A DNA stretch of 14,142 bases. Source: Candidatus Electronema aureum (lineage in GTDB: Bacteria > Desulfobacterota > Desulfobulbia > Desulfobulbales > Desulfobulbaceae). The stretch lies in the NCBI GenBank assembly GCA_004284765.1, contig NQJD01000048.1:1-14142 (forward strand), given 5' to 3'. Position numbers and translations under genes: made by a program. Positions 1 to 14,142 of this stretch are shown in pieces. A model generated the notes under the pieces. The model worked only from the letters and a program-made list of their open reading frames with translations. It ran no database searches and had not been told where the DNA came from. Position 1 is the stretch's first letter, and the number at the start of each line of letters is the position of its first letter.

Positions 1-127
1 CTGTACTTACAGTTGAGGAAATTAAAAACTATATTGAGGTGATTGACCCTTTAACTCAACAAATTATTATTAAGCCGGATTTAGCTTCAACATTCAAGCT
101 GGAACCGGATGGATTTGTCTTTGCGAA
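1..127. repeat. Terminal redundancy, copy 1. It is identical to 14016-14142 and marks the overlap of a circular molecule with a 14,015-bp unit.
   Basis: I compared the two ends base by base and all 127 nt match exactly. The reading frame from 13358 continues through the junction into 3..3149. Confidence 0.9.
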
Positions 128-3100
128 ACCACTCAATCTTGCTTTGAAATACAACATAGCTGCTTTGAGAGATAAGTTTACAGAGAATGATCTTACTATC
201 AGACATAATGGACATAAAGTGGAAACAACACTTGATACATATCAACAGATTGTTTCTGGTGAAATCAATCACTTTTCCAGTGTCACTATTTCGACCTACT
301 CTGGAAAATGCACAGAAGAAAAAGTCGGTAAGTTCAATAGTAGTTCACCGACACCGATAAAGTATTTTAATTGCGAGAACACTTGGGCATATCCATGGAT
401 GCACGTTGCTGTTGCTGATAGAGCCGCTCTTGCGACAACATACGAACTAAAAGTTTTAGCAGCTCATAACTCAGGTGAAACATTCAGAACGCAAACTGTT
501 CAGCATCTTGTTGACGAACACTTTCCAGATGCTGTTGTAGCGATCAATGGAACTACATTTAATTGCAAAGAAGGTGACGGTGAGGCTTGTTATGCCAAAA
601 ATATGGATGGGAGCTATCCAGTCTATACAACAGCTACAGATAGAAGGTTGAATCAACTGGTTACAAATCCTTGTGTTGATGGCAGTAAAGATAATTGCAC
701 GCCAGAAGTAGCATTAGCTTTTGGTGGAGATAACCAAGATAGAATTCCTATCCAATATTTAACCCATAATAGCAAGTTACTCGATAAAGAAAATAAAGAT
801 AAAGAACTTTATCTTTATGAAACTGTATTTCAAAAATCCTTTGGGATGAGTATAGGGGAGGTAGATATAGAGAAAGACAGGGCTATGAACGGTACAGCAA
901 TGGCCTCCATGATAGGGACGCACACAGGAATTAGGTTTGGGAATATTTGCAGAGTTTCTGGAGATACTGGACAAGGTAAAGAAGGTATTTTTATTGATAC
1001 CGAAGCAAGTTTATTCGGATATGGTCAAGATAAAATAATTTTTTTATCTAGTCATTACTCTCCGAATATCATTGATAGACCTTTCTGCACTTTTGATACA
1101 TTTGAAGATATGTGTGAGGCTGTCAGGCTCTTTGGAATAACAGACGCTGTTAGCTTAGATGGTGGCCCATCAGTACAGCTTGTTGTTGACAGAAATCTAA
1201 AGAATATTCAATCGCCTTCAGATGCCCGTCATGTCGTCAATGCTGTTGGGCTTGTTTGCAATAATCCTGACATGTCAAAAGGCTCTACTCCTGATCCTGA
1301 TGGAAAATACCGTATAATTCATTCAACAAAATATCGTTGTGAAGATAATCTCTGCTGGTCTCCAAGTTGGAAGCCCAACTTCGAGAATCTTGCCAAGGGA
1401 ACTTTGAGTTGCTGGGATGCCGATAAGTGGTTTGAAATCAAAGACGGTAATATCTGCGGAAATAAGACTGAGCGAGATCGTTCTATCTGCGCTGAAGTAT
1501 ATAAAAATTCGAGTAATGACGGGGAAACTGGCGACAACAGCACCAGCACCGGTGGTTCTTACACACCGCCAAAACCTGATGACCAGCCTGTTCCCGGTCT
1601 GCCTGACTTCATTATCAATAAAGTTACCCTTGCCAACGAAAGCGGGAGCAAAGAGAAATATCGTTGGAAAATTAACGAAACCGCCTACGTCCACTCATGG
1701 ACTGACAACATTGGCGATGCCAACTGGCAGGGCAGCGCAGACAAGATCAAAGTTCCTTTCTATCTCTCCAAAGGCATCCATGAGGACAGTCATTCTGAAT
1801 GGAAACGTATAGACCGAATGGAAATCAAGAGAGATAAACTCAAAGTCAACCAGCCGCCCAAGCACGAATATATCAAATTCAAGCTACAAGACTATGCCAA
1901 TGATGGCACAGTGATGCCGGGCCGCACCTACAATTTTGTGGTGTGTGCTGACCGTCCTCATGACGAAGACAACGGTGATGGTGATGTACAAGAAAAGCAC
2001 AAATCCAACAACTGCTCAACTGAAGCCGTCTTCTATGTTGACTACGGCCCACCTCGAAACGTTGACCTGACCGCCAGCAATCTCGCCCTTACTGGCGGCA
2101 GAACTTTGCTTCAGGCAGGCGAGAAATACGGCCTGCAAGTGGTAATCTCGAACATCGGCACAGAACCGCCTTGGAACGGCTTCCTCACCAGCTACGAAAT
2201 CAAAGGGCCGGGAACTGGCAACGTATGGCAGCGCATCAGTCAAGACAGTTCGCAGGCCAGCAGCCTGTATCAAAACGCCACTCACTCCGAAAGCATGAGC
2301 AGCGAGCAGGAAGTGAATGCGCCAATGGTTGGCGGTGATTATGTCTTCCGTACTTGTGCTGACTACACGCAGGCAGTGCCAGAGACCAACGAAAGCAACA
2401 ACTGCACTGCCGAACTGCCGGTTTATGTTGCTCCACCGCCAATGCCCGACCTGATCACCGAAGGGCTTCAGCTCACACATGGCCGCACCAGTTTGATTGC
2501 AGGCGAGCTGTACGGCCTGACTGTGAATGTGAGGAACATCGGCAATGCAACGCCTTCCAGCTACAGCTACACCAAGTACGAAATCAAAGGGCCGGGCACC
2601 AGCGATCAGTGGCAGAAGGTGGCTGAAGACGGCACAATGGCCGAGCATCTTGAACCGGGCATGACGCATTGGGAAGAGATTTCGGACGATGAGGGGTTGC
2701 ATATCCCTGCCGTACCCGGAACCTACACCGCCAGAGCGTGTGCTGACTATAAGGGCAATATCCCGGAATCAGACGAAGGCAACAACTGCTCTGAGATAAC
2801 CTTTGAGGTGGAGCCTGTTCCGGCTGGTTCGCCCCGCATTGTCATCACCAATCCAACCAGTGATGATGATTGGCGCAGCAGTGAAACAGACCATGACGTG
2901 CGCTGGGATTACTTTGATTTTCCTGTGCAGGGCAATGTGCGGGTGGAATATTCGCTTGATGGTGGCGCAACATGGCTTTTGATTGATGACGAAACCACCA
3001 ATGACGGCAAGAAACACTGGGAAGACATGTGCGATTATCACACGGTTGACACCCATCATGCCTACATCCGTGTCACTTCGCTGGAATATCCGTATGTCTA

Positions 3101-3149
3101 TGATGTCTCTGATGAGTTCACCATAGACCACGCTGCGGAGTGCGAGTGA
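3..3149 (+). CDS. Remainder of the same lipoprotein of about 1268 aa: NAGPA-like phosphodiester glycosidase domain, Cys-rich linker, three CARDB repeats and a C-terminal beta-sandwich-like domain.
   Basis: The frame is continuous with 13358..14142 across the junction, so the GTG at 39 in the ORF track is internal. NAGPA-like motifs: AVVAINGTTFN (nt ~530) and AVSLDGGPSVQLVVD (nt ~1150). CARDB repeats lie at about nt 1600-2040, 2060-2430 and 2446-2815. Each ends in C-A-D-x5-10-E/D-x-N/G-N-N-C (CADYTQAVPETNESNNC, CADYKGNIPESDEGNNC). The 20-mer tacgaaatcaaagggccggg recurs at 2194 and 2578, a 384-bp period. Stop codon TGA at 3147-3149. Confidence 0.8.
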   Translation, partial: VLTVEEIKNYIEVIDPLTQQIIIKPDLASTFKLEPDGFVFAKPLNLALKYNIAALRDKFTENDLTIRHNGHKVETTLDTYQQIVSGEINHFSSVTISTYSGKCTEEKVGKFNSSSPTPIKYFNCENTWAYPWMHVAVADRAALATTYELKVLAAHNSGETFRTQTVQHLVDEHFPDAVVAINGTTFNCKEGDGEACYAKNMDGSYPVYTTATDRRLNQLVTNPCVDGSKDNCTPEVALAFGGDNQDRIPIQYLTHNSKLLDKENKDKELYLYETVFQKSFGMSIGEVDIEKDRAMNGTAMASMIGTHTGIRFGNICRVSGDTGQGKEGIFIDTEASLFGYGQDKIIFLSSHYSPNIIDRPFCTFDTFEDMCEAVRLFGITDAVSLDGGPSVQLVVDRNLKNIQSPSDARHVVNAVGLVCNNPDMSKGSTPDPDGKYRIIHSTKYRCEDNLCWSPSWKPNFENLAKGTLSCWDADKWFEIKDGNICGNKTERDRSICAEVYKNSSNDGETGDNSTSTGGSYTPPKPDDQPVPGLPDFIINKVTLANESGSKEKYRWKINETAYVHSWTDNIGDANWQGSADKIKVPFYLSKGIHEDSHSEWKRIDRMEIKRDKLKVNQPPKHEYIKFKLQDYANDGTVMPGRTYNFVVCADRPHDEDNGDGDVQEKHKSNNCSTEAVFYVDYGPPRNVDLTASNLALTGGRTLLQAGEKYGLQVVISNIGTEPPWNGFLTSYEIKGPGTGNVWQRISQDSSQASSLYQNATHSESMSSEQEVNAPMVGGDYVFRTCADYTQAVPETNESNNCTAELPVYVAPPPMPDLITEGLQLTHGRTSLIAGELYGLTVNVRNIGNATPSSYSYTKYEIKGPGTSDQWQKVAEDGTMAEHLEPGMTHWEEISDDEGLHIPAVPGTYTARACADYKGNIPESDEGNNCSEITFEVEPVPAGSPRIVITNPTSDDDWRSSETDHDVRWDYFDFPVQGNVRVEYSLDGGATWLLIDDETTNDGKKHWEDMCDYHTVDTHHAYIRVTSLEYPYVYDVSDEFTIDHAAECE

Positions 3150-3262: not shown

Positions 3263-3700
3263 AAAACTTCAACGCACTCGGCCCTTGTAAAATAGGCAAG
3301 GCAAACAGGTCAACGGCTACCAAAGCCGAAGATTTCTCCCCGTATATTTTCCTGTTTTTCCTGAATCCATGAGGGTTTGCTGACTGAATTCGCTCCCCTC
3401 TATTCTTTTACTCCCCATTGTATTCCCCACATTTGCTTTGTTTTTGATGTTTCAAGGTCTGAAAAACGGTGTTGGTGAACCTGCCTTCTCTTCGATTCCA
3501 AGCATCGTCTTCAGACAGCCAAGGCAGTCCGCCCGGATCATCTCAACAATAACACTCCCCCTGACAGCGTTTCAGTGGATTTATCCCGGATAACCTACCA
3601 ACGGTCACAAGGAAGGCTATCATCGGCCCGCTGCTGCTCATTCACCTATCCAGTGTTCCTTGCAAATTTTTTGTTATATCATCTTGTTACATGTAGAAAA

Positions 3701-3807
3701 TAGTAAATACAATACATTGTTGCTGGCAAGTGATTGTATTTACTATGTTGATAACAAATCATTATTGATTATGAATAATGATTTGTTATTCATAATCAAT
3801 AATGATT
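3701..3807. promoter_or_regulatory. AT-rich inverted-repeat cluster upstream of the polymerase-like ORF; candidate origin or operator.
   Basis: Perfect 13-bp IR: tagtaaatacaat (3701-3713) with attgtatttacta (3733-3745). Perfect 16-bp IR: ataacaaatcattatt (3751-3766) with aataatgatttgttat (3774-3789). Overlapping perfect 20-bp IR: aatcattattgattatgaat (3757-3776) with attcataatcaataatgatt (3788-3807). Confidence 0.4.
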
Positions 3808-3963
3808 AGATTTAAAGTTTTTTAAAAAGTAAATTCCAAAAATAATTTTGTTATCCATTTGCCAAAATTTTTATTGACACTTTCAAAAAAAATAGATAAG
3901 TATGACTATTCCAAATATACTGGAAAATACCATTTAAAAAATATCAAAATAAAACACTGAAAA

Positions 3964-5337
3964 ATGCACAATATTCCTAATCCATTTATTGTTTTAAAGA
4001 CAAGTTACATTGATAAATCAAGATTTTCTATAATAGAAAACGAATTGAAGAACAACTGCATTTCCGATTCTTCTTCTTCAGAAGAAAGAAATTTGTTTTC
4101 ATCTATGTTGAAGCAATTTCTATTCAATTTAATTAAAGCAAATAATGACGAAAAGAAACTTCGTTACTCAAGAACGTATAGTATGTTTTGTACAGGAAAC
4201 AAATATTATAAAATCATTTTAAGAATAAATGGAGATGTTAGGCCGAAAAATTTAAAAAAAGCATACAATCTTTTCAGAGCGATTGCAGACACGTTATGCT
4301 TGACAGGATGGACTGAACAGAATATTGGTCGTTGGTACGGAAGTTTGCAAACAGAGATTTGGCTTTCTGAAAAATGCAAAGGATATTTTAACGATTTATC
4401 GAATGTTATATTTCAAAATGATAAAGAGCGTGAACTTGTTGTAATGTACAAATACACAAGCCAAGAAAAAGAAAGAATTAAATTTTCTAATGGAAATAAA
4501 ACATATATCAGCAAATGTAATTTTGTCCGTAAATTAAATATTTTTTATGAAAATTGCAAAATTACAGTTAAGGGGAAAATAAATATAACGAGCTATATAG
4601 ATTCTCTATTATCATCATTGTCAAAATACGCAAGGATTTCTCCAGTAAAAATGATTTTATGCTCAGAAAATGTGTATGATTTAGAGTTTGAATTATTTGA
4701 TAAATCTGTCAGGAGGGCTTTTTCTTATTCTGTTTTTGGTAAAGGAGGACGATATTCAGCAGTATGGACTAATTTTCCTGAAGCTCTTCAAGAAATTATT
4801 TATCTTAACCACAGCAACATTCCTTTAATAAAATTAGATTTTCAATCGTTTAACCCATCCATGTGTTATAGTCTGATTGGCCAGCCAAACTATGGCGATC
4901 CTTATCGAATTGATGGCATAGATCGTTCGATAGTTAAAAAAATGATAACAAGAATATTGAGTTGTGAAAACAAACAAAAAGCTATTGGCTCTATTAACAA
5001 AGAATTCAAAGAATTTAGTAAAGATAAGATAATTGAGATTATGAGCATTATCGAGGAAAAGCATTCTGCAATAAAAAATAGATTTTTCTATAAGAACAAT
5101 TCTGCAAAATTGATGAATTTTGAATCATCAATTTTAACTGATATTCTTGATGAATCAATATTTAAGAGGGGAATCTTCGTACTTCCTTTCCATGATGCTA
5201 TTTTAACATCTTTTGAAGATGCAAATGAGGTAATAAATATAATGAAAAATTCTTATATAAAAAATGTTATGAATTATCTGTCTAAAAACGGAATAGAATT
5301 GAAATCTGAAATTAACCCAATAATTAAATATAAATAA
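3964..5337 (+). CDS. Orphan 457-aa protein with family-A / T7-like single-subunit polymerase-like motifs. It may be a replication protein or another nucleotidyl-transfer enzyme.
   Basis: Long ORF in about 30% GC DNA. GKGGRYSAVWTNFPEALQ (G261-R263-Y264) resembles Pol I TGRLSS..PNLQNIP and T7 RNAP RGRVYAV. KLDFQSFNPSM (D292) resembles motif A DYSQIELR. DRSIVKK (R321, K325) has the motif B RxxxK spacing. LPFHDAIL (H410-D411) resembles motif C HDE/HDS. Motif order matches the family but spacing is shorter than in Klenow. No exonuclease motifs seen. Confidence 0.4.
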   Translation: MHNIPNPFIVLKTSYIDKSRFSIIENELKNNCISDSSSSEERNLFSSMLKQFLFNLIKANNDEKKLRYSRTYSMFCTGNKYYKIILRINGDVRPKNLKKAYNLFRAIADTLCLTGWTEQNIGRWYGSLQTEIWLSEKCKGYFNDLSNVIFQNDKERELVVMYKYTSQEKERIKFSNGNKTYISKCNFVRKLNIFYENCKITVKGKINITSYIDSLLSSLSKYARISPVKMILCSENVYDLEFELFDKSVRRAFSYSVFGKGGRYSAVWTNFPEALQEIIYLNHSNIPLIKLDFQSFNPSMCYSLIGQPNYGDPYRIDGIDRSIVKKMITRILSCENKQKAIGSINKEFKEFSKDKIIEIMSIIEEKHSAIKNRFFYKNNSAKLMNFESSILTDILDESIFKRGIFVLPFHDAILTSFEDANEVINIMKNSYIKNVMNYLSKNGIELKSEINPIIKYK

Positions 5338-5467
5338 TATCTTTATTTATAAATTCATTTTTAATGAATGGTTATTTCAGATTAATGAATATTTTTTATT
5401 TTTTACATTTAATCAGATTATCTCTTATCAGTTCTATTCATTAATATTCATTATATATATAAAATAG

Positions 5468-5501
5468 ACGGCAATAAAGGTCAAAGCCCTTTATATGCCG
5501 T
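5468..5501 (-). terminator. Stem-loop at the right edge of AT-rich block 1; possible minus-strand terminator.
   Basis: acggcaataaagg (5468-5480) pairs with cctttat(a)tgccgt (5488-5501), giving 13 bp with one bulged A and a 7-nt loop. On the minus strand the hairpin is followed by ctattttat. Confidence 0.3.
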
Positions 5502-5687
5502 ACTGAAAGTAGGCGAGGTGTTGGCGGTCTTGTGGTTCTATGAGGGATTGCGGGCGGGTACCCTTGTTACTATACGAAATTATTCAATATTTTTTATTTA
5601 TCAATAAAATAAACAGGTTAGGCAGGTCAGCAATGAAGTATGCCTTCATGTCTTTGACTTTCAGGGCAAGGAAAGAGCTGGCTGTCA

Positions 5688-5756
5688 GGCTGCTATCCAG
5701 ATTTGTGCCAAGAGGCCGTTTAATTTTCAATCTGATACCTTTCAGGGATAGCAGCC
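5688..5756. repeat. 11-bp perfect inverted repeat with a 47-nt spacer in a non-coding spacer region.
   Basis: ggctgctatcc (5688-5698) and ggatagcagcc (5746-5756). The short motif ctttcaggg occurs twice nearby. Confidence 0.5.
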
Positions 5757-5989
5757 ATGCGCAGGTATTGCCTGCTCAGATAAACGAATTTGGGGGCAAA
5801 AGAATTGCGTTTAAATACACAGAAGATAACTTGCGAATATTGTTAAGGAATTTTGGAAAACCTTGTAAGTTATTGTTAATATTCAAGATCATAAAAACAG
5901 GAAGATCAGCAGATGAATCTTTTAGATTTTGAAGGCCACCCGATCTTTGACTTGAAGGGGCAATGAGCAGACCTGCTCTAATTTCAACA

Positions 5990-5998
5990 GGGGGGGGG
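5990..5998. repeat. G9 homopolymer tract.
   Basis: acag+ggggggggca, nine consecutive G in a region with no convincing gene. Confidence 0.8.
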
Positions 5999-6288
5999 CA
6001 AATTTCGGTTCTTGCTGGTGCGGCAATAGGGTTGGACGTTCCAGCTTGAAAGTGGCTCTAATTCAATTTTAAAGGCACTCTTAGTCTCTGCTCTCAATCC
6101 ACCGCTCCGCGCCACCTTGAACGGGCTTGAACAAAACGAGGAACGGCAGGGCAGGGCTTTGAAGAGGTTGGGGGAGCAGATCAGCGATCTGTCCAGCCTG
6201 CGGAAGGATTCATGGACTCTATAACCAACGTGCTGAAAAAGCATTGCGACAGAGTGGAAGCGAAGCGTAAGGATGGCCCCCTCTCTTT

Positions 6289-6306
6289 CTGCTCAAATTT
6301 GAGCAG
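6289..6306. repeat. Perfect 18-bp palindrome just downstream of the minus-strand operon; weak terminator candidate.
   Basis: ctgctcaaatttgagcag lies 27 nt beyond the TAG (6333-6335) of the GAF-like gene. No flanking T-run. Confidence 0.3.
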
Positions 6307-6332
6307 CATCCGTTCCTACTTTCTGTTTTACC

Positions 6333-7253
6333 CTATTTGCCTTTTGTATCCGCTTTATCCTTATTTAAAATAAATTCAGAACAATACATCATTCTGATAA
6401 TTAAAAATAATGACACCATATCTGATACAATATATCCAAAACGGATATCTATATTATCGTTAAAATATTCTTTATGCCTGTGATCTAAACATAGAAATCC
6501 AAAGATAGTCTTATCGAAAGAACTATTTCCACCTACACATTTAATAAAATTTTTAGATACATTTGAGTTAATAATTGTCATAGGAATAACGATTGTGCTC
6601 TTATAGCAAGATTCTGCTGAAGGTCTATTTGTCTTATTATCAATATCCCAACAATTTTCCCATGATATATCTCTTTCAGTTTTTCCAAAAAAAAATTCTT
6701 TTAAAGAAAAAGATTCTACAATAGTATTCTTAACCGCATTAACATCTATTCTTTTGTTTACATACAAATCATTACGAACATATAAAGGGATATTATTACA
6801 GATATAATATACTCCTGTATCTTTTATATGTTTAAAAGCAGTATTCTCAATTATTGAGAACCTTTCAAAGGTACCTTTCTCCCCTACATCTCTATACAAA
6901 TCTACAATAAATTCATCCTGATAAGGAGACTTAAAGGTGACCCGTGGGGCATATTTTGATCTCCCATTAAAATACTCTTTAACATAAGAAGATGAAAGCA
7001 TAAAAACATCTTTTATTGAATTATCCAAAAATAAATCAAGCTCGTCAGATTTTAAATTAGCTTTTTCTACATGCTTGTGGATTAATAAATTTTGATATTC
7101 ATTATACATATCAAATGACACAACAGTATACTCTGCCAATTTAGTCTGCATCTTACAAAGATAATCATTAATTAATGATATATTGTTATATCTTATATAT
7201 GAAATCGTTTCAGCTAATTCAAATAGTATGTTCAGTATATTCATTTCTACCAC
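6333..7253 (-). CDS. GAF-like domain protein, fourth gene of the AT-rich operon.
   Basis: 306-aa ORF. The C-terminal half has a GAF-like pattern: RVTFKSPYQDEFIVDLYRD ... ENTAFKHIKDTGVYYICNNIP ... CYKSTIVIPM ... KTIFGFLCLDHRHKEYFNDNIDIRFGYIVSDMVSLFL. Compare the GAF consensus S-x-L-x-V-P-h ... h-G-h-L-x-h ... F-x-x-x-D. Start is uncertain: 7253, 7244 or 7151. The first two overlap the upstream gene. Confidence 0.45.
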   Translation of the reverse strand: MVEMNILNILFELAETISYIRYNNISLINDYLCKMQTKLAEYTVVSFDMYNEYQNLLIHKHVEKANLKSDELDLFLDNSIKDVFMLSSSYVKEYFNGRSKYAPRVTFKSPYQDEFIVDLYRDVGEKGTFERFSIIENTAFKHIKDTGVYYICNNIPLYVRNDLYVNKRIDVNAVKNTIVESFSLKEFFFGKTERDISWENCWDIDNKTNRPSAESCYKSTIVIPMTIINSNVSKNFIKCVGGNSSFDKTIFGFLCLDHRHKEYFNDNIDIRFGYIVSDMVSLFLIIRMMYCSEFILNKDKADTKGK

Positions 7254-7815
7254 ATTCTACAAAATAGTTTTCCTGACTATATGTAATATTTAGTTTTTTA
7301 AAATCCATATTTGGAATATTTAGTTTTTTAAAATCCATATTTGGAAAATTTGTCAATGACTGTTTTTCTACCTGTGATTTTTCTTTATTTTTTATATATC
7401 TTTCTATGTGCCTCATGGGAACAAAACAATTTTCTTTTTTTCTGGAATATTTACGCTCAAGATATTGAATATATTTATTCAATCTGATAACACATTGATC
7501 GTCCATTACTTCATTATTTTTAATTATTTCTTTCAGTAATTGCAACATATCACCATGTGTTTCTACTAAGATTTTATCTTTACTAATTCCATACGCATAT
7601 TTTTTATCTGAAAAATCAATTATTATTTTCCCTTGTCCATGTATATAGTTAGGTATATCTTCAAAAGATTTGTCGTAATTATCTATTACCAAAGATTCAC
7701 CATTTGGATATATAAGATATAACGAATTAGAATGCGGAACAATTTTTTTTGCTGCGATTATAAGTGGCGCAGGAAAAACAACGTTCGGATTTATATATCC
7801 TAAAATTTTTTTCAT
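7219..7815 (-). CDS. Orphan 198-aa protein with no recognisable domain, third gene of the operon.
   Basis: Its ATG at 7815 overlaps the TGA of the upstream gene (ATGA at 7812-7815). The ORF has the same AT-rich composition as its neighbours. It contains the in-frame duplicated decapeptide PNMDFKKLNI. Confidence 0.55.
   Translation of the reverse strand: MKKILGYINPNVVFPAPLIIAAKKIVPHSNSLYLIYPNGESLVIDNYDKSFEDIPNYIHGQGKIIIDFSDKKYAYGISKDKILVETHGDMLQLLKEIIKNNEVMDDQCVIRLNKYIQYLERKYSRKKENCFVPMRHIERYIKNKEKSQVEKQSLTNFPNMDFKKLNIPNMDFKKLNITYSQENYFVECGRNEYTEHTI
7287..7346. repeat. Perfect 30-bp tandem duplication inside the orphan CDS.
   Basis: tatttagttttttaaaatccatatttggaa occurs at 7287-7316 and again at 7317-7346. 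It is in frame (10 aa) and yields PNMDFKKLNI twice. Confidence 0.9.
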
Positions 7816-8645
7816 AGTTTTTTACTTATCGAAAGATAGTTTTTTACTTTTTCATGCAATAAAATATAGTCATTTTTCGGTCCAAAATCTTTTGGTACAG
7901 AATCATATTCATCTTCATCATAGTAGATAATTTTTACATTAAATTTACTAATTTTTCTGTTAAAATCATCATTTATAGGTAAATGAATAGGTGAAGAAAG
8001 AATGATTACCTCTATATATTCAAAATCAATATCTTGATGAATTAATACTTCTATAGCACGTTTTCTCCAATCTGCTTGTTCATTTTCTTCAGATTTGTAT
8101 AATCTGTCTAATAATTGATCACGGTTATCTATATTTCCACTGCATATATAAGGATATGTATTGAAATTTGCAGTAGAATTTCCGTTTACATAACCTTTGT
8201 TATTAGAAAAATAACGTGTTACTATCTTTGAAGGTACTTCTTTGTTAAAGAAGTATTCCTCATTTTTGATTTCAAAATTTTGTAATATTATAGAATCATC
8301 GTTAAGTAAATGTCGAAATTTCTTATAACCACCACTGTCAAACGGATAGATTTTTTTTGCATATTTAATTGCATCACTCTTCACCAACAAACCCATTGGC
8401 TTTGAAAAAGAAATATCAACAGAACAAGGATTTTTTTTAAAATCAACTCTTTCGTTGATAATAAAAAAAGGTAATCCATAATAAAAAAAAAGTCCAACCC
8501 CCTTGTTTGAATCCTTTTTCAAACCACTCATTACGATTGAATCTAAATTATCCGATTTCGTTGTATGTGCAAGTGGAAGCAATGGTTTTGATGAAGGGCA
8601 ATTATATATAATATCAAGAAAATCTACCATTTCCCTTCTTGTCAT
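7812..8645 (-). CDS. DarT/DUF4433-like ADP-ribosyltransferase-fold protein (H-Y-E type), second gene of the operon.
   Basis: 277-aa ORF. LPLAHTTKSDNLDSIVMSGLKK resembles DarT IYHITHIDNL..IL..G. GLFFYYGLPFF resembles Y-V-P-F-Y-F. WRKRAIEVLIHQDIDFEYIEVIILS resembles K-x-A-E-F-L-V ... I-E-E-I-x-V. Motif order matches the family. The start lies 2 nt after the SLATT-like stop. Confidence 0.4.
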   Translation of the reverse strand: MTRREMVDFLDIIYNCPSSKPLLPLAHTTKSDNLDSIVMSGLKKDSNKGVGLFFYYGLPFFIINERVDFKKNPCSVDISFSKPMGLLVKSDAIKYAKKIYPFDSGGYKKFRHLLNDDSIILQNFEIKNEEYFFNKEVPSKIVTRYFSNNKGYVNGNSTANFNTYPYICSGNIDNRDQLLDRLYKSEENEQADWRKRAIEVLIHQDIDFEYIEVIILSSPIHLPINDDFNRKISKFNVKIIYYDEDEYDSVPKDFGPKNDYILLHEKVKNYLSISKKL

Positions 8646-8647
8646 TT

Positions 8648-9106
8648 CTATTTCTGTTCAGGTTTTAACCTTGATTGAATCCAATGTTGGTTAGTATCTT
8701 TCAAGATAGATATATATCTATCATAGAATTTATCAATAACTTGTTCAGATATATTTTCATCTGATTTGATACAAGAATATAAAATATCTGTCTTTAATGC
8801 CTTTAGATCATTCGTTGTATCTGTATATTTAACCCATAATTTTTTATAATTAAAAAAAGAATCTAAAGTTGATAATACAGTTAGTGACGCACTTAAAACA
8901 AGTGCAAGATTTTTAAAAAATATTTTGTAAGTATCTTGTTCTATCCCTAAAAAAATTGTAATTAGAGCACTAATTATTATTAGTGTCATATTTAAATATG
9001 ACGACATTTTTCTATTAAACGTCCTTTTCTCTTCAAAAGATTTAATCTTTAAATCAACTTCCTGTTTAAGGAATGATATTTTATCTTCTATATGCTTTTG
9101 CATCAC
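8648..9106 (-). CDS. SLATT-like (DUF4231-type) two-transmembrane effector protein, first gene of the operon.
   Basis: 152-aa ORF with an N-terminal helix, then two hydrophobic helices (YLNMTLIIISALITIFLGI and FKNLALVLSASLTVLSTLDSFF). These are followed by NYKKLWVKYTDTTNDLKALKTDILY, matching the post-TM W...R/Y.T...L pattern of SLATT families. Start is GTG at 9106 or ATG at 9103. An agagagg Shine-Dalgarno sequence lies 8-11 nt upstream. Confidence 0.6.
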   Translation of the reverse strand: MMQKHIEDKISFLKQEVDLKIKSFEEKRTFNRKMSSYLNMTLIIISALITIFLGIEQDTYKIFFKNLALVLSASLTVLSTLDSFFNYKKLWVKYTDTTNDLKALKTDILYSCIKSDENISEQVIDKFYDRYISILKDTNQHWIQSRLKPEQK

Positions 9107-9184
9107 TTTCGTAGCCTCTCTTTATAAAAATCCAAAGCAGAATTACAGTGTGTCATTCCCGTGCTGTTTGTGATGCAGATTGCC

Positions 9185-9230
9185 CTTTGTTGAGATCGAA
9201 CCTGAAACTTTGTTGAGATCGAACCTGAAA
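9185..9230. repeat. Two perfect tandem copies of a 23-bp unit, 80-125 bp upstream of the SLATT-like gene; candidate operator or iteron-like site.
   Basis: ctttgttgagatcgaacctgaaa occurs at 9185-9207 and again at 9208-9230. Confidence 0.85.
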
Positions 9231-9896: not shown

Positions 9897-10823
9897 TTAC
9901 TGCTTGAATTCTCTTTTCCATGCGGTATAAGGTGCCTTCACAAGCATACATTCTGGCCCATCGCTGGCAATTATCGGTAGCAGGCCGGGGTCTTTCTTCT
10001 CAATGTATTTCAAAAATTCATCCCAGTATTCAGGAAAATTAGACTGTCTCGCTATTGGCTGCGGTTTGATAGCTGAATCTGCAATCTTTTGTAACGATTT
10101 GCCAACGTTTCCGGCCTTGGATTTTTTCCCATATCTCATATTATTTTTGATGATGATGAATTTGAGCCGGGTAATCTTGCGGCCTTCCCTGATAGTTTCA
10201 ACCTCAAAAGTCAGATCACATTTGTTTCTTCCAGTTTCGTCTATGGCTTCCATCTCCTTTTTGGCCTGAGCAAGGACGCGCTGGCTAAACCGTTTGTATT
10301 CGCGGTACTCATCTTTTTCGATGCCGAGAATTTCTCGAAGTTCTTTCAGCTCGAATCCTCGCCAGCCTATGGATGTATATTGACGCAAGAGCATGTATAA
10401 CCTAATCGTATATTTGCCCCCGAATCCTGTAATAATTGCCAGATCACAGATTGTAAATTCAGATTTCAGTTGGAGCAGGTACGGCTTCAAATCCGGCATG
10501 AAGGATAAAACAACACTTCCCTGCTTATGCTCTGCACGACATAGCCAGTGGATATGCACCAAGTTCCCTTGTGCCGATCTTATCGATAGAACGCGACTCA
10601 TAAGGTGCTTGGTTATCCCGACCAACTCCTTGTAGGCATCGGCCAAGTCAATCCCCATAAGCTGACTGAGTTCCTTGAGCGAAATATCGTATTCGTGCAG
10701 GGCATCATCCTCTGCACGAATTTTTGAGATTAGGCTAAAGATGAGTCTTTGTTCCAAGTTCGTTAATCTGTAACGTGCCTCTACTAACGAGTTCGACTGC
10801 ACGACCATAGTTTTTTTTAGCAT
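9897..10823 (-). CDS. Rep_3-family (RepB-like) plasmid replication initiator.
   Basis: The N-terminus MLKKTMVVQSNSLVEARYRLTNLEQRLIFSLISKI matches the Rep_3 signature (vvqsNeLieArY.Ltl.EqRli). I prefer the ATG at 10823 because gaggg lies 5 nt upstream. The ORF track extends to a TTG at 10889, which would overlap the promoter and operator. Iterons lie immediately upstream. Confidence 0.85.
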   Translation of the reverse strand: MLKKTMVVQSNSLVEARYRLTNLEQRLIFSLISKIRAEDDALHEYDISLKELSQLMGIDLADAYKELVGITKHLMSRVLSIRSAQGNLVHIHWLCRAEHKQGSVVLSFMPDLKPYLLQLKSEFTICDLAIITGFGGKYTIRLYMLLRQYTSIGWRGFELKELREILGIEKDEYREYKRFSQRVLAQAKKEMEAIDETGRNKCDLTFEVETIREGRKITRLKFIIIKNNMRYGKKSKAGNVGKSLQKIADSAIKPQPIARQSNFPEYWDEFLKYIEKKDPGLLPIIASDGPECMLVKAPYTAWKREFKQ

Positions 10824-10857
10824 TTTTACCCTCTTTAGTTGCTCAGTAATCTGTCCT

Positions 10858-10902
10858 TTCATCTTACTAAGGACTACGGAACTTGACAAGTGTAGTTCCG
10901 TA
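10858..10902 (-). promoter_or_regulatory. Putative rep promoter with an overlapping inverted-repeat operator.
   Basis: On the minus strand: TTGTCA (10889-10884), a 17-nt spacer, then TAAGAT (10866-10861). The 9-bp IR tacggaact (10875-10883) with agttccgta (10894-10902) overlaps the -35 and shares tgtag with the iterons. Confidence 0.45.
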
Positions 10903-10904
10903 TT

Positions 10905-10967
10905 GGGAATCTGTAGCCTTTTATATGGGAATCTGTAGCCTTTTATATGGGAATCTGTAGCCTTTTA
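10905..10967. repeat. Iterons: three direct copies of a 22-bp unit (the third is 19 nt), marking the oriV of the Rep_3 replicon.
   Basis: gggaatctgtagccttttatat occurs at 10905-10926 and 10927-10948, and gggaatctgtagcctttta at 10949-10967. They sit directly upstream of rep. An AT-rich stretch and the palindrome gtgcgcgcgcac (11034-11045) follow. Confidence 0.85.
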
Positions 10968-11648: not shown

Positions 11649-11927
11649 TTACTTGAAAAGATCGCTGTGACTGCCAGTTCTCTCTAAAATCAAATTGTCT
11701 TCATCTATCGTATAGATAAGAATCCAATCTGGTTCAACGTGGCAGTCACGGGAAGGTTTCCATTTTCCAGTCAAGCTATGGTCTCTACAGCTTGCATCAA
11801 GAGTTTTTCCATTTGCAAGAAGAGAAACAATTCGCTTGAGCTTGTCTAAATCCTTTCCACGTTTTGCAGCTTTTTTTACATCTCTTAAAAACTGGCGGGT
11901 CTGTGAAACTTTTTTTATCGCTGCCAT
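11649..11927 (-). CDS. yafQ: Type II toxin YafQ (RelE-superfamily mRNA interferase).
   Basis: The 92-aa product aligns by eye along its length with E. coli YafQ, including the identical HVEPDWILIY and a similar RDH.L.G.WK..RD. It overlaps the upstream antitoxin gene by 13 nt. Confidence 0.9.
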   Translation of the reverse strand: MAAIKKVSQTRQFLRDVKKAAKRGKDLDKLKRIVSLLANGKTLDASCRDHSLTGKWKPSRDCHVEPDWILIYTIDEDNLILERTGSHSDLFK

Positions 11928-12172
11928 GTCTCAAACATCTCATCCAGACTGGCAAAAGTCTCAATTTCCTCTCGCCTTCTGCTTTTCGCCAGAGTCTCGG
12001 CTGTGCAATTGTTGGGGATTTCCAAAGGGAAGGGAAGTCCATTGCCAAGGCAAATTTGGCGATAGAAGATTCGTATTGCCTCAGTCGGGGTCAATCCGAT
12101 TTGGCTAAGTATCTGTTCTGCCTGATGTTTAATCTCAGGCTCAATGCGGGTGTGGATAGTTGCTGTCTTCAT
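11915..12172 (-). CDS. dinJ: Type II antitoxin DinJ (RelB/DinJ family).
   Basis: MKTATIHTRIEPEIKHQAEQILSQIGLTPTEAIRIFYRQI..NGLPFPLEIPN matches the DinJ ribbon-helix-helix N-terminus and the LPF motif. I prefer the ATG at 12172. The track's longer ORF (to 12232) would run through the operator palindrome. Confidence 0.85.
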   Translation of the reverse strand: MKTATIHTRIEPEIKHQAEQILSQIGLTPTEAIRIFYRQICLGNGLPFPLEIPNNCTAETLAKSRRREEIETFASLDEMFETWQR

Positions 12173-12205
12173 GGTAAAAGCAGTGTAGCACAAATGCAAC
12201 ACAAA

Positions 12206-12230
12206 GATCAAGCAGGTATGCTGCTTGATC
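12206..12230. promoter_or_regulatory. Palindromic operator overlapping a putative dinJ-yafQ promoter.
   Basis: Perfect 10-bp IR: gatcaagcag (12206-12215), spacer gtatg, ctgcttgatc (12221-12230). On the minus strand: TTGATC (12211-12206), an 18-nt spacer, then TACACT (12187-12182), about 9 nt before the ATG, which implies a near-leaderless transcript. Confidence 0.45.
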
Positions 12231-12386
12231 ATCGCTCACCTGTTCAATTTTTTTTGCACCACAGCCTTTAAAATAGTAGCTTTTTTTATTTTTAGAGATA
12301 GATTTCAGGCAAGGTGGGGAAGAGACTTAGCCTGCGTGTGCAGGGGAGAAAGGCAGAACACTTTGCTCTCTTTGAGATAAGCTATA

Positions 12387-13361: not shown

Positions 13362-14142
13362 GGCACATTATGTGTAAACTGAATGGTATCCTTTGTGGCG
13401 TTGTTGCTCTGTCTCTGTTTGTTGGATGCGGCAGTGCCTTGGCTGAAAAAGCGCAACTTGATAACAATGCGGCATCAGAGATTGTTCTTGATGTAGTGCG
13501 GATTGAAGCCTGCGTTGATAATACAGATGAATGCTTCGTTGCGGGTGGGTCGAAGCAGATGAATTTGTTTGACTTGGCTGAAGGGAAGGTTGAGGCTGAA
13601 GGGAAGGTTGATTTTGCCAAGCAGGTGCTATTGCCGGATAACACCACGGAACTGAGGCTTGTTCTTGGGGACAAGAGCACCGTTGCTGTGAATGGCAAAT
13701 CGTTTTCGTTGACCGTACCGAGCGGACAGACTTCTGGGCTGAAGCTGAAAGGCGAGAATATTTTCCCTAAGAAAGGAGGTTTTCTTACAAGTCTTGCTTT
13801 GAATTTCGATCTTGGCAAGATGCTTGTTGAGCAGAAAAAGAATGGAACTGATGCGGCCTATTCGCTGAAACCTGTTATTCAAGTGGCTTCTGCGGATATT
13901 AAACCGATGCCGGAGAATACAGTGGGGGCAGTGGTGCTGCCGGGACAAGAAAGCGTTATAGAGCTGGGCAATGCTTTTACTTTGTCTATTCCCTCTGGTG
14001 CTGTTTCTGGGGCTACTGTACTTACAGTTGAGGAAATTAAAAACTATATTGAGGTGATTGACCCTTTAACTCAACAAATTATTATTAAGCCGGATTTAGC
14101 TTCAACATTCAAGCTGGAACCGGATGGATTTGTCTTTGCGAA
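13358..14142 (+). CDS. N-terminal part of a large lipoprotein (signal peptide with lipobox, then a DUF4382-like domain). The ORF runs off the window end and continues at 3..3149.
   Basis: The ATG at 13358 overlaps the upstream TGA (ATGA); an alternative ATG lies at 13370. The frame I translated has no stop through 14142. N-terminus: MRHIMCKLNGILCGVVALSLFVGCGSA, with hydrophobic h-region followed by the VGC lipobox. DUF4382-like motifs: LTVPSGQTSGLKLKG, LALNFDLGK, YSLKPVIQV. Frame arithmetic: 658 + 3149 = 3807 nt = 1269 codons. Confidence 0.75.
   Translation, partial: MRHIMCKLNGILCGVVALSLFVGCGSALAEKAQLDNNAASEIVLDVVRIEACVDNTDECFVAGGSKQMNLFDLAEGKVEAEGKVDFAKQVLLPDNTTELRLVLGDKSTVAVNGKSFSLTVPSGQTSGLKLKGENIFPKKGGFLTSLALNFDLGKMLVEQKKNGTDAAYSLKPVIQVASADIKPMPENTVGAVVLPGQESVIELGNAFTLSIPSGAVSGATVLTVEEIKNYIEVIDPLTQQIIIKPDLASTFKLEPDGFVFA
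13577..13612. repeat. 18-bp in-frame tandem duplication inside the DUF4382-like region.
   Basis: gctgaagggaaggttgag (13577-13594) and gctgaagggaaggttgat (13595-13612) match at 17 of 18 positions, giving AEGKVE-AEGKVD. Confidence 0.85.
14016..14142. repeat. Terminal redundancy, copy 2, identical to 1-127.
   Basis: Exact 127-nt match to the window start. A length of 127 is typical of a k-mer overlap left on circular contigs, which is inference. Confidence 0.9.

Follow-up and report, generated by a model that had tools for sequence, protein, structure and literature searches.

A plasmid-borne member of the TV-Pol/divPolA2 family of minimal family-A polymerases in the cable bacterium Candidatus Electronema aureum

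Minimal polymerases of mobile elements

Transposons and viruses encode minimal superfamily-A polymerases of 400-600 amino acids, which were first described together under the name TV-Pol (Iyer, Abhiman and Aravind 2008, Biol Direct 3:39; PMC2579912). The minimal TV-Pol domain, counted with a bihelical thumb, is found as a free-standing protein, as a fusion with a D5 helicase (Sputnik V13) or behind an uncharacterised N-terminal globular domain, and a combined primase and polymerase activity was predicted for the family (PMC2579912). Members with the N-terminal domain adjoin lambda-type integrases, gamma-delta resolvases or transposases and lie in hot spots rich in restriction-modification genes, in Rhodobacterales, Rhizobiales, Geobacter, Desulfococcus, Flavobacteria and others (PMC2579912). 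A group named divPolA2, with AUR84708 as its representative, was later reported in barbaviruses and other tailed phages, within Caudoviricetes only (Yutin et al. 2024, Virol J 21:200; PMC11348598). These proteins have an active palm, no exonuclease, no homologous thumb and a new N-terminal globular domain; their genes lie in variable neighbourhoods, sometimes as 2-3 paralogues, and the suggested roles are those of a repair polymerase or an RNA polymerase (PMC11348598). This report addresses a gene of the same kind, CDV28_1482, which encodes 457 residues on a small plasmid of the cable bacterium Candidatus Electronema aureum. The stretch of DNA analysed, 14,142 nucleotides long and called the window below, is an entire contig of the metagenome-assembled genome of this organism.

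The activity of such enzymes is best illustrated by CcPol of the staphylococcal element SCCmec, which was listed under TV-Pol in 2008. CcPol alone extends primers, and with a small single-stranded-DNA-binding partner, MP, it makes DNA primers de novo (Bebel et al. 2020, eLife 9:e55478; PMC7581432), preferring a start site next to its own operon (PMC7581432). Among family-A folds, CcPol-MP alone has experimental support as a primase. Like the family described here, CcPol is an exonuclease-less family-A polymerase of a mobile element, adjoining site-specific recombinases.

The protein of the window, 100% identical to a Ca. Electronema aureum entry annotated as hypothetical protein CDV28_1482, is a member of the TV-Pol family, called divPolA2 for its phage members. 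Its plasmid-borne gene is a new copy within a family that was recognised in 2008 and described again in 2024. The model and the motifs set out below predict a stripped-down relative of DNA polymerase I (Pol I) and T7 RNA polymerase, and the best explanation overall, which we consider probable, is a TV-Pol/divPolA2 member that most likely serves its carrier element as a primase-polymerase. The additions made here are modest: the family is shown to be very large, its linkage to integrases is quantified, the N-terminal domain is tentatively taken as a winged helix, and a conserved segment with repeats is identified downstream of the gene.

With the N-terminal-domain subset of TV-Pol the window gene shares the minimal superfamily-A core (hairpin arginine, two aspartates, RxxxK), the lack of a nuclease and the stand-alone layout. 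Its relatives likewise occur in Alpha-, Delta- and Gammaproteobacteria and in Bacteroidota, with integrases, resolvases and restriction-modification genes as neighbours. Unlike that subset, the gene itself lies on a Rep_3 plasmid without an adjoining recombinase, and its N-terminal domain, modelled as helices plus a beta-hairpin, differs from the all-helical domain predicted for TV-Pol (PMC2579912). The TV-Pol assignment fits by architecture, taxa and context, with the 2008 exemplars compared by description only. With divPolA2 the protein shares homology to AUR84708, the lack of an exonuclease and a novel N-terminal domain, apparently in place of a normal thumb. The divPolA2 genes belong to tailed phages that also have a regular replicative polymerase, whereas the present copy is plasmid-borne and most of its relatives lie in chromosomal integrative islands; the plasmid carrier widens the range of the family and does not exclude homology.

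Fold, catalytic residues and N-terminal domain

An AlphaFold model of the whole protein, built on 68 sequences, has a pLDDT of 86.5 and a pTM of 0.82, with pLDDT above 90 over residues 250-440 and above 95 over residues 290-440. When the model was compared with the PDB by Foldseek, all matches at E<=1e-3 were family-A polymerases (probability 0.99-1.00), namely the apicoplast polymerase 9qv9 (E=1.2e-4), Pol I of M. smegmatis and of Aquifex, Pol theta, POLRMT, T7 RNA polymerase and KlenTaq. The secondary structure fits the family-A assignment, as D292, R321/K325 and H410-D411 sit at the expected strand, helix and hairpin turn (Table 1). Sequence comparison points the same way with lower scores. 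When hhalign set the family profile against individual sequences of Pol I, T7 RNA polymerase and T7 DNA polymerase, the E-values were a non-significant 0.07-0.13; at such scores, the best local alignment with E. coli Pol I placed GGRFY on TGRLS (R668), WWQniP on NLQNIP and ELDYS on ADYSQ (D705), and that with T7 RNA polymerase placed LPVHDSF on LIHDSF (D812). Neither the protein nor any of the 68 relatives matched a Pfam (including DNA_pol_A and RNA_pol) or NCBIfam model, and every copy is therefore annotated as a hypothetical protein. Searches of PDB sequences with the protein, the family profile and a hidden Markov model (HMM) of the C-terminal domain returned no family-A polymerase, and the sole match in a curated library is PHROG 4756, of function unknown (residues 287-433, E=7e-24).

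Much of this had been anticipated. The initial annotation, made from the letters of the window, had proposed a compact family-A polymerase, encoded by a 457-residue open reading frame (ORF) in DNA of about 30% guanine plus cytosine (GC) and lacking an exonuclease domain. The frame is present, at 28% GC; all motif residues quoted, including GGRY (261-264), W268 and NFP (270-272), lie where they had been placed, and the spacings of 29 residues from D to R and 119 from D to HD are right. No nuclease was found for the N-terminal 240 residues in Pfam, NCBIfam and PDB sequence searches, the structural comparison returned only family-A DNA and RNA polymerases, and the residues picked out as catalytic are near-invariant. 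Two of its judgements did not survive: it had called the gene an orphan, and had thought the small size unusual for a polymerase, while the family is both large, as shown below, and twice described at this size (PMC2579912, PMC11348598).

Conservation was counted in 163 aligned family sequences. D292 and K325 are present in all 163, R263, H410 and D411 in 162 each, G262 and Y314 in 161, Y302 and R276 in 160 and R321 in 159. The family consensus reads GGRFYGGWWQ..P...R..I.ING.PTVELDY...HP..LY ... DPY ... R...K.......NA ... KH..I...F..G.G..LQ..DS.IA ... LPVHDSFIV. Its motif C, LP[VI]HDSF[IV]V, has the HDS form, whereas the window protein has HDA. Three further positions are of interest for nucleotide choice. 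That of Klenow E710 is mostly H in the family (115/163) and N297 here; that of F762 is L or N in the family and T329 here; and that of Y766, which corresponds to Y639 of T7 RNA polymerase and lies eight residues after the motif B lysine, is N in 144 of the 163 and S333 here. The ratio of nonsynonymous to synonymous substitution (dN/dS) against the copy on contig L001, a close relative described below, is 0.16 in both halves of the gene, so the gene is under purifying selection, and by sequence all catalytic residues are kept.

Set beside Pol I (Klenow, KlenTaq), the ordered series TGR...NLQNIP...D(705)YSQ...R(754)xxxK...HD(882) is recognisable, although the fingers are about 60 residues shorter, the thumb appears reduced, the exonuclease domains are gone, and the steric-gate glutamate and the O-helix Phe/Tyr are replaced. 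What is left of the thumb, ahead of the palm, is one conserved 18-residue helix (179-196; N192 in 140/163) and a short helix at 212-220. With the T7-type RNA polymerases and POLRMT the family shares the palm and fingers of family A and the HDS-type motif C of its consensus. Those enzymes start chains de novo with the help of an extra N-terminal DNA-binding domain, and POLRMT also primes DNA replication. In T7 RNA polymerase, as in CcPol, the final helix of the thumb is short. The window protein is distinct from T7 RNA polymerase in its length (457 against 883 residues) and in having no Pfam RNA_pol match, no specificity loop and no equivalent of Y639.

These residues bear on whether the protein could be a miniature single-subunit RNA polymerase, the N-terminal domain of which would read a promoter, and which would transcribe the genes of the element in the manner of the T7 and N4 RNA polymerases. 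The HDS motif C of the family is that of T7-type enzymes and not the HDE of DNA polymerases, the glutamate steric gate of DNA polymerases is missing, POLRMT and T7 RNA polymerase are among the fold matches, and several paralogues per phage could reflect several promoter specificities. We nevertheless regard an RNA polymerase as unlikely. A protein of half the size of T7 RNA polymerase, with at most a remnant of a thumb and no specificity loop or RNA-exit elements, is hard to picture in processive transcription; N or S stands where T7 RNA polymerase has its NTP-selecting tyrosine; motif C of the window protein is HDA, not HDS; and the position after the integrase (int) and AlpA genes in the islands is the usual replication slot.

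Ahead of the core of about 280 residues lies an accessory N-terminal region of about 160. Modelled separately (pLDDT 72.6), it forms a helical bundle followed by a helix-plus-beta-hairpin unit at residues 97-134. The top Foldseek matches of this model are nearly all winged helices of the MarR, PadR and TubR types (E 0.09-0.7), and a profile of the region run against PDB sequences returned, at E 0.05-0.3, PadR, MarR and the archaeal ORC2 winged-helix domain. The domain is tentatively modelled as a winged helix.

Breadth of the family and its neighbourhoods

The polymerase is not an orphan. An HMMER scan of 1.84 billion representatives, clustered at 50% identity, gave 1,785 homologous clusters at E<=1e-3, of which 150 reached E<=1e-10. 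The alignments all cover residues ~240-435, many begin at residue ~170, and the family has a median length of 439 residues (interquartile range 396-496). In 185,579 genomes, one per species, a survey with the two peptide patterns PVHDSFIV and GGRFY[GH][GA][WF]W confirmed at least 438 genomic loci, mostly in Alphaproteobacteria, with some in Beta-, Gamma- and Deltaproteobacteria, Bacteroidota and Verrucomicrobiota. Leisingera aquimarina DSM 24565, Nitrosomonas communis Nm44 and strains of Rhizobium leguminosarum are among the carriers available in culture. The plasmid database PLSDB holds copies in 3-4 records only, so the family is not a common plasmid Rep.

With a bacterial family member as the query, 175 phage records were matched, of which 115 were barbaviruses and none was a Microcystis phage. 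BLASTP relates the window protein to AUR84708 of Vibrio phage 1.063.O (E=1e-16), and the tblastn match in that phage falls inside the coding sequence AUR84708.1. The best full-length matches in the viral structure library BFVD (E~1e-17, TM score 0.5-0.6, 400-450 residues) include barbavirus, Aeromonas-phage and Vibrio-phage proteins, among them one of Barba31A (E=8.5e-17).

The genomic neighbourhoods of the homologues were surveyed at 50 loci with full 6-kb flanks, with an offline iterative HMM for the integrases that may have admitted a few false positives. The recurrent partners are recombinases. At 40 of the 50 loci a tyrosine recombinase or integrase lies within 6 kb. It stands upstream at 31, has the same orientation as the gene at 29 and is closer than 500 bp at 11. 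A Pfam check of the upstream side (33 loci, 147 ORFs) found Phage_integrase to be by far the commonest family, in 17 of the 147 ORFs, and on the downstream side Resolvase (9), Phage_integrase (8) and ResIII (6) were followed by parts of type I restriction-modification systems. No primase, DnaB-type helicase or plasmid Rep family occurred twice in either set, and SLATT was absent from the families listed for these neighbourhoods. One locus has the order int-AlpA-gene-hypothetical-methylase-ResIII, a plasmid island of Sphingomonas has int-HTH (helix-turn-helix)-gene followed by Vsr, HNH and Dcm, and some copies lie in phages with terminase or tail-fibre genes. The relatives are thus found where TV-Pol genes were described, in mobile elements beside an integrase or resolvase and in restriction-modification hot spots.

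The simplest carrier is a 5.2-kb integrative element (contig L010, 6962-11899; the whole of contig L011) at the 3' end of tRNA-Thr(CGT), with a repeat of at least 30-49 bp at its borders. It holds an integrase, six small ORFs, a TV-Pol homologue and a PDZ protein, and the integrase and the polymerase gene are its sole large core genes. It is among the smallest integrase-borne islands found, and was recovered from several samples. L011 was considered as a free circular replicon and rejected, the terminal repeat being the duplicated attachment (att) site in tRNA-Thr.

These neighbourhoods also weigh on a role in repair. An accessory repair or gap-filling DNA polymerase, extending primers only, would act on damaged or nicked DNA of the element or phage; Yutin et al. 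list this option (PMC11348598), CcPol without its partner does no more than extend primers (PMC7581432), the arginine with which Pol I reads the minor groove is conserved, and the carrier phages also have a regular replicative polymerase. The 50 neighbourhoods show no link to repair genes, however, and a repair enzyme would be unexpected as one of the two core genes of the 5.2-kb element and would leave the large, sequence-diverse N-terminal domain unexplained. We hold it to be quite unlikely.

A homologue in another electroactive sediment bacterium, Thioclava electrotropha, lies on plasmid pTElox9 (contig L003, 7851-8786). It has 311 residues and is N-terminally short; as it stands directly after an IS21 insertion, it was probably truncated by IS21. 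It adjoins AbiEi/AbiEii and a methylase-helicase pair.

Flanking DNA, carrier plasmid and proposed function

The first 127 bases of the window are identical to its last (1-127 and 14016-14142), so the contig is a closed circle of about 14,015 bp and a complete small plasmid. The backbone has 43% GC and is interrupted by two AT-rich inserts, at 3650-5466 (26% GC) and 6250-9110 (27% GC). The first of these, 1.8 kb long, contains the polymerase gene and was acquired horizontally. No co-oriented gene follows the ORF, and the small flanking ORFs have no family matches. The coordinates of the features are collected in Table 1.

Table 1. Positions of the polymerase gene, its parts and other features in the window
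Feature	Position	Strand	Remarks
Upstream hairpin 1	3700-3746		14-bp perfect core, cruciform-capable
Upstream hairpin 2	3757-3807		20-23-bp stem, 5-7-nt loop; also readable as a 24-bp unit x1.9
TV-Pol/divPolA2-family polymerase-like gene (CDV28_1482)	3964-5337	+	457 aa
N-terminal accessory domain, core aa ~39-135	4078-4368	+	modelled helices 39-61, 72-76, 80-86, 97-113, then beta-hairpin 117-134
Predicted minimal family-A polymerase core, aa ~175-457	4486-5334	+	thumb remnant, beta-hairpin, palm, trimmed fingers
G261-G262-R263	4744-4752	+	counterpart of the Pol I T-G-R(668) hairpin arginine
D292, predicted motif A catalytic aspartate	4837-4839	+	in LDFQSF; closes strand 289-293
R321-x3-K325, O-helix (motif B)	4924-4938	+	opens helix 321-333
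H410-D411, motif C	5191-5196	+	in FHDAIL; turn of hairpin 406-415 (strands 406-409/412-415)
Conserved AT-rich segment directly 3' of the gene	5338-5466		four TAATGAAT copies around a T-rich spacer
Conserved hairpin after the AT-rich segment	5468-5501	+	possible transcript end, no T-run
Cassette of the second AT-rich island	6333-9106	minus	four tightly packed genes
SLATT protein gene	8648-9106	minus	NF033634, E=3e-25
Rep_3 initiator	9897-10889	minus	Rep3_N, E=9.5e-37
Three perfect 22-bp iterons	10904-10967		directly upstream of the Rep_3 gene; likely plasmid origin
YafQ/RelB toxin-antitoxin pair	11649-12232		intact

A word-indexed homologue search found two close relatives of the gene, on contigs L001 and L002, with protein identities of 86% and 84%. 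The DNA homology with these relatives starts at 3949-3973, just before the ATG, and runs through the gene to 5666; in L001 it resumes at 5944-6203, the intervening 277-bp stretch of the window (5667-5943) being missing there. In L002 (751-2132) the gene is split by a frameshift into ORFs of 306 and 158 residues, and is either a pseudogene or the product of a sequencing error.

Upstream of the gene, inverted-repeat arms lie at 3697-3713/3733-3749 and 3751-3769/3771-3789, with a 20-bp perfect stem at 3759-3805. Folded as single-stranded DNA, the region 3690-3820 forms two long hairpins of -30.8 kcal/mol, against -9.4 +/- 2.4 for shuffled sequences (z=-9.1; 0/200 shuffles as good), and the nested inverted repeats of the initial annotation are therefore real. 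In the 86%-identical relatives they are missing and replaced by unrelated DNA, which is 93% alike between L001 and L002 and holds a different inverted repeat, perfect over 15 bp, some 150-185 bp ahead of the ATG; because the homology begins near the start codon, the conserved gene unit does not include the hairpins at 3700-3807. Their role may be that of a local operator, a terminator or an insulator, or they may be a scar left by recombination. A Fur-box reading of the palindromes was dropped, with ~9/19 matches by hand count.

The lack of the hairpins in the relatives also speaks against an autonomous second replicon, in which the gene and the upstream inverted repeats would be the Rep and origin of an element cointegrated with the Rep_3 plasmid. 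The sharp composition borders of the AT-rich island, the strength of the hairpins and the replicative role predicted for the family (PMC2579912) would all suit such a replicon. A search of a metagenome collection with the hairpin arms found no other copy, only isolated 20-27-bp matches not beyond chance 20-mers; no small circular contig with the gene alone was found either, the apparent circle being an att duplication. A second replicon is, in our judgement, very unlikely.

Downstream of the gene the picture is different. Four of the five copies of the octamer TAATGAAT in the whole window fall within 92 bp (5362-5453), at 5362 and 5383 on the plus strand and at 5436 and 5446 on the minus strand, and the two plus-strand copies, spaced 21 bp apart, do not differ among the three sequences. 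The segment 5338-5466 differs from the relatives at 5-9% of sites and that at 5571-5666 at 5-7%, compared with 12-20% in the GC-richer piece between them and 33% at the synonymous sites of the gene (synonymous divergence, dS, 0.44). The recurrence of ATTCAT/ATGAAT motifs noted earlier in this region is thus borne out for the octamer and for the conservation of the segment, and not for the looser motif: the 10-mer WTATGAATAA, with one mismatch, was found 12 times window-wide against 7.4 expected, which is no enrichment. The downstream region has no unusual fold (z=-0.5), and the consensus fold of the segment shows no covariation among the three sequences. We infer that 5338-5466 is a candidate cis site, such as an origin or priming site, and it is a better candidate than the upstream hairpins.

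In the mechanism proposed, a template-directed polymerase of low processivity would start DNA synthesis for the carrier element, as a primase-polymerase; we see this as a real possibility that stops short of probable. Gripping the DNA or recognising the site would fall to the N-terminal, probably winged-helix domain, a role analogous to that of MP for SCCmec CcPol and of the promoter-binding domain for T7 RNA polymerase, and once priming was done the replisome of the host would take over. The best candidate for the site of action would be the AT-rich segment with the TAATGAAT repeats directly 3' of the gene. The reduced thumb argues for short products. The slot after int/AlpA is, in small islands and satellites, normally that of a replicase or primase and no other replicase recurs there, which fits the priming prediction of 2008. 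On a plasmid with its own Rep_3 gene and iterons, the polymerase would be an auxiliary or relic replication module and not the main replicon. The option of a replication protein raised by the initial annotation stands in part: it agrees with the TV-Pol prediction (PMC2579912) and with the primase activity of CcPol-MP (PMC7581432), and the upstream repeats, which were to be its origin, are not conserved.

Several points weigh against a primase-polymerase. Sequence profiles alone do not reach the family-A polymerases, and the link is made by structure and motifs. The sugar-selecting residues of DNA polymerases and T7-type RNA polymerases are absent from the family, and the choice between deoxynucleoside and ribonucleoside triphosphates is not readable from sequence. 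The winged-helix assignment is suggestive, coming from sub-significant scores. No N-terminal-domain TV-Pol member had been assayed as of 2020 (PMC7581432), and nothing later was found. In large phages the copies lie in variable neighbourhoods, sometimes as 2-3 paralogues, and away from replication genes (PMC11348598), which makes a poor fit to a replicase. The window has no helicase, neither a recombinase nor a helicase stands beside the gene, and the plasmid has its own Rep_3 system. CcPol, finally, is a precedent and not an orthologue, because it is closer to classical Pol I than to the present family and depends on a partner: it is Pol I-like and closest to the CHEAP cluster, and keeps the E710 and F762 equivalents that the window protein does not; it has no N-terminal domain of the kind typical of many TV-Pols (Rice 2023, PMC10061031), whereas the window protein has one; and it needs a separate OB-fold (oligonucleotide/oligosaccharide-binding) partner and travels with a helicase (the Cch2 module), an operon that has no counterpart at the window gene.

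A bolder form of the primase-polymerase proposal is that TV-Pol/divPolA2 members with the N-terminal domain are self-sufficient and site-specific, one polypeptide of about 450 residues recognising the site by its winged helix and starting de novo on a family-A active site, with no partner of the single-stranded-DNA-binding (SSB) kind and no helicase, so that gene and conserved repeat segment would together form a one-gene replication-initiation module. We think this somewhat doubtful. If it were true, such a module would be in use in small integrative islands by the thousand, in some phages and in this plasmid, and of the natural family-A enzymes able to initiate chains the protein would be the smallest. 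Self-priming would add a further kind of primase beside DnaG, archaeo-eukaryotic primases (AEP) and CcPol-MP, on a very compact polymerase scaffold, and the module would account for the replication of many small integrase-borne defence islands that have no recognisable replicase. Cable bacteria are without genetic tools, and there is practical value in knowing the replication parts of their plasmids, here Rep_3 with its iterons and possibly a polymerase module.

The second AT-rich island raises the last alternative. Its four-gene SLATT cassette looks like an uncharacterised conflict or abortive-infection cassette; the 277-residue protein has a faint DarT-like match (E~0.004-0.009), and the 198- and 306-residue proteins have no family match. 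The polymerase could be a conflict effector or counter-effector that works with this cassette, for instance by synthesising polynucleotides that are untemplated or serve as signals. The two islands are both AT-rich cargo of one plasmid, homologues are found in defence-rich hot spots that also hold restriction-modification and AbiE-like genes, and Pol theta, a family-A enzyme, has terminal-transferase activity. Yet PADLOC gave no match for the protein, its template- and primer-contacting residues are conserved, and no defence family is consistently paired with it, the recurrent partners being recombinases. The link to the neighbouring conflict cargo, put forward as the second option of the initial annotation, is not upheld, as the SLATT cassette is not adjacent in L001 and SLATT is not among the families listed for the surveyed neighbourhoods. 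We consider a conflict role highly improbable.

Other features of the plasmid may be noted briefly. Within the cassette, a 30-bp tandem repeat (2.5 copies, 93% matches) at 7278-7351 lies in ORF 7219-7815, with the peptide NIPNMDFKKLNI duplicated near the C-terminus. A perfect 23-bp x2 direct repeat lies at 9185-9230, between the SLATT cassette and rep. The region 5467-6330 holds only short ORFs with no family matches, and a run of nine G at 5991-5999. No phage genes were found in the 14-kb Rep_3 plasmid, and Rfam and tRNA scans of the window gave nothing relevant. A 50-residue ORF at 11343-11495 matches only the first half of an HI1420-type addiction-module antidote (PF21716, E=9e-5), and is probably a truncated remnant adjoining YafQ/RelB. 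The plasmid also encodes an N_BRCA1_IG membrane protein and a large CARDB/NAGPA surface protein of 1,036 residues (39-3149), the gene of which rises from 38% GC at its 5' end to 55% in its repeat-rich 3' half and encodes two near-duplicate CARDB modules.

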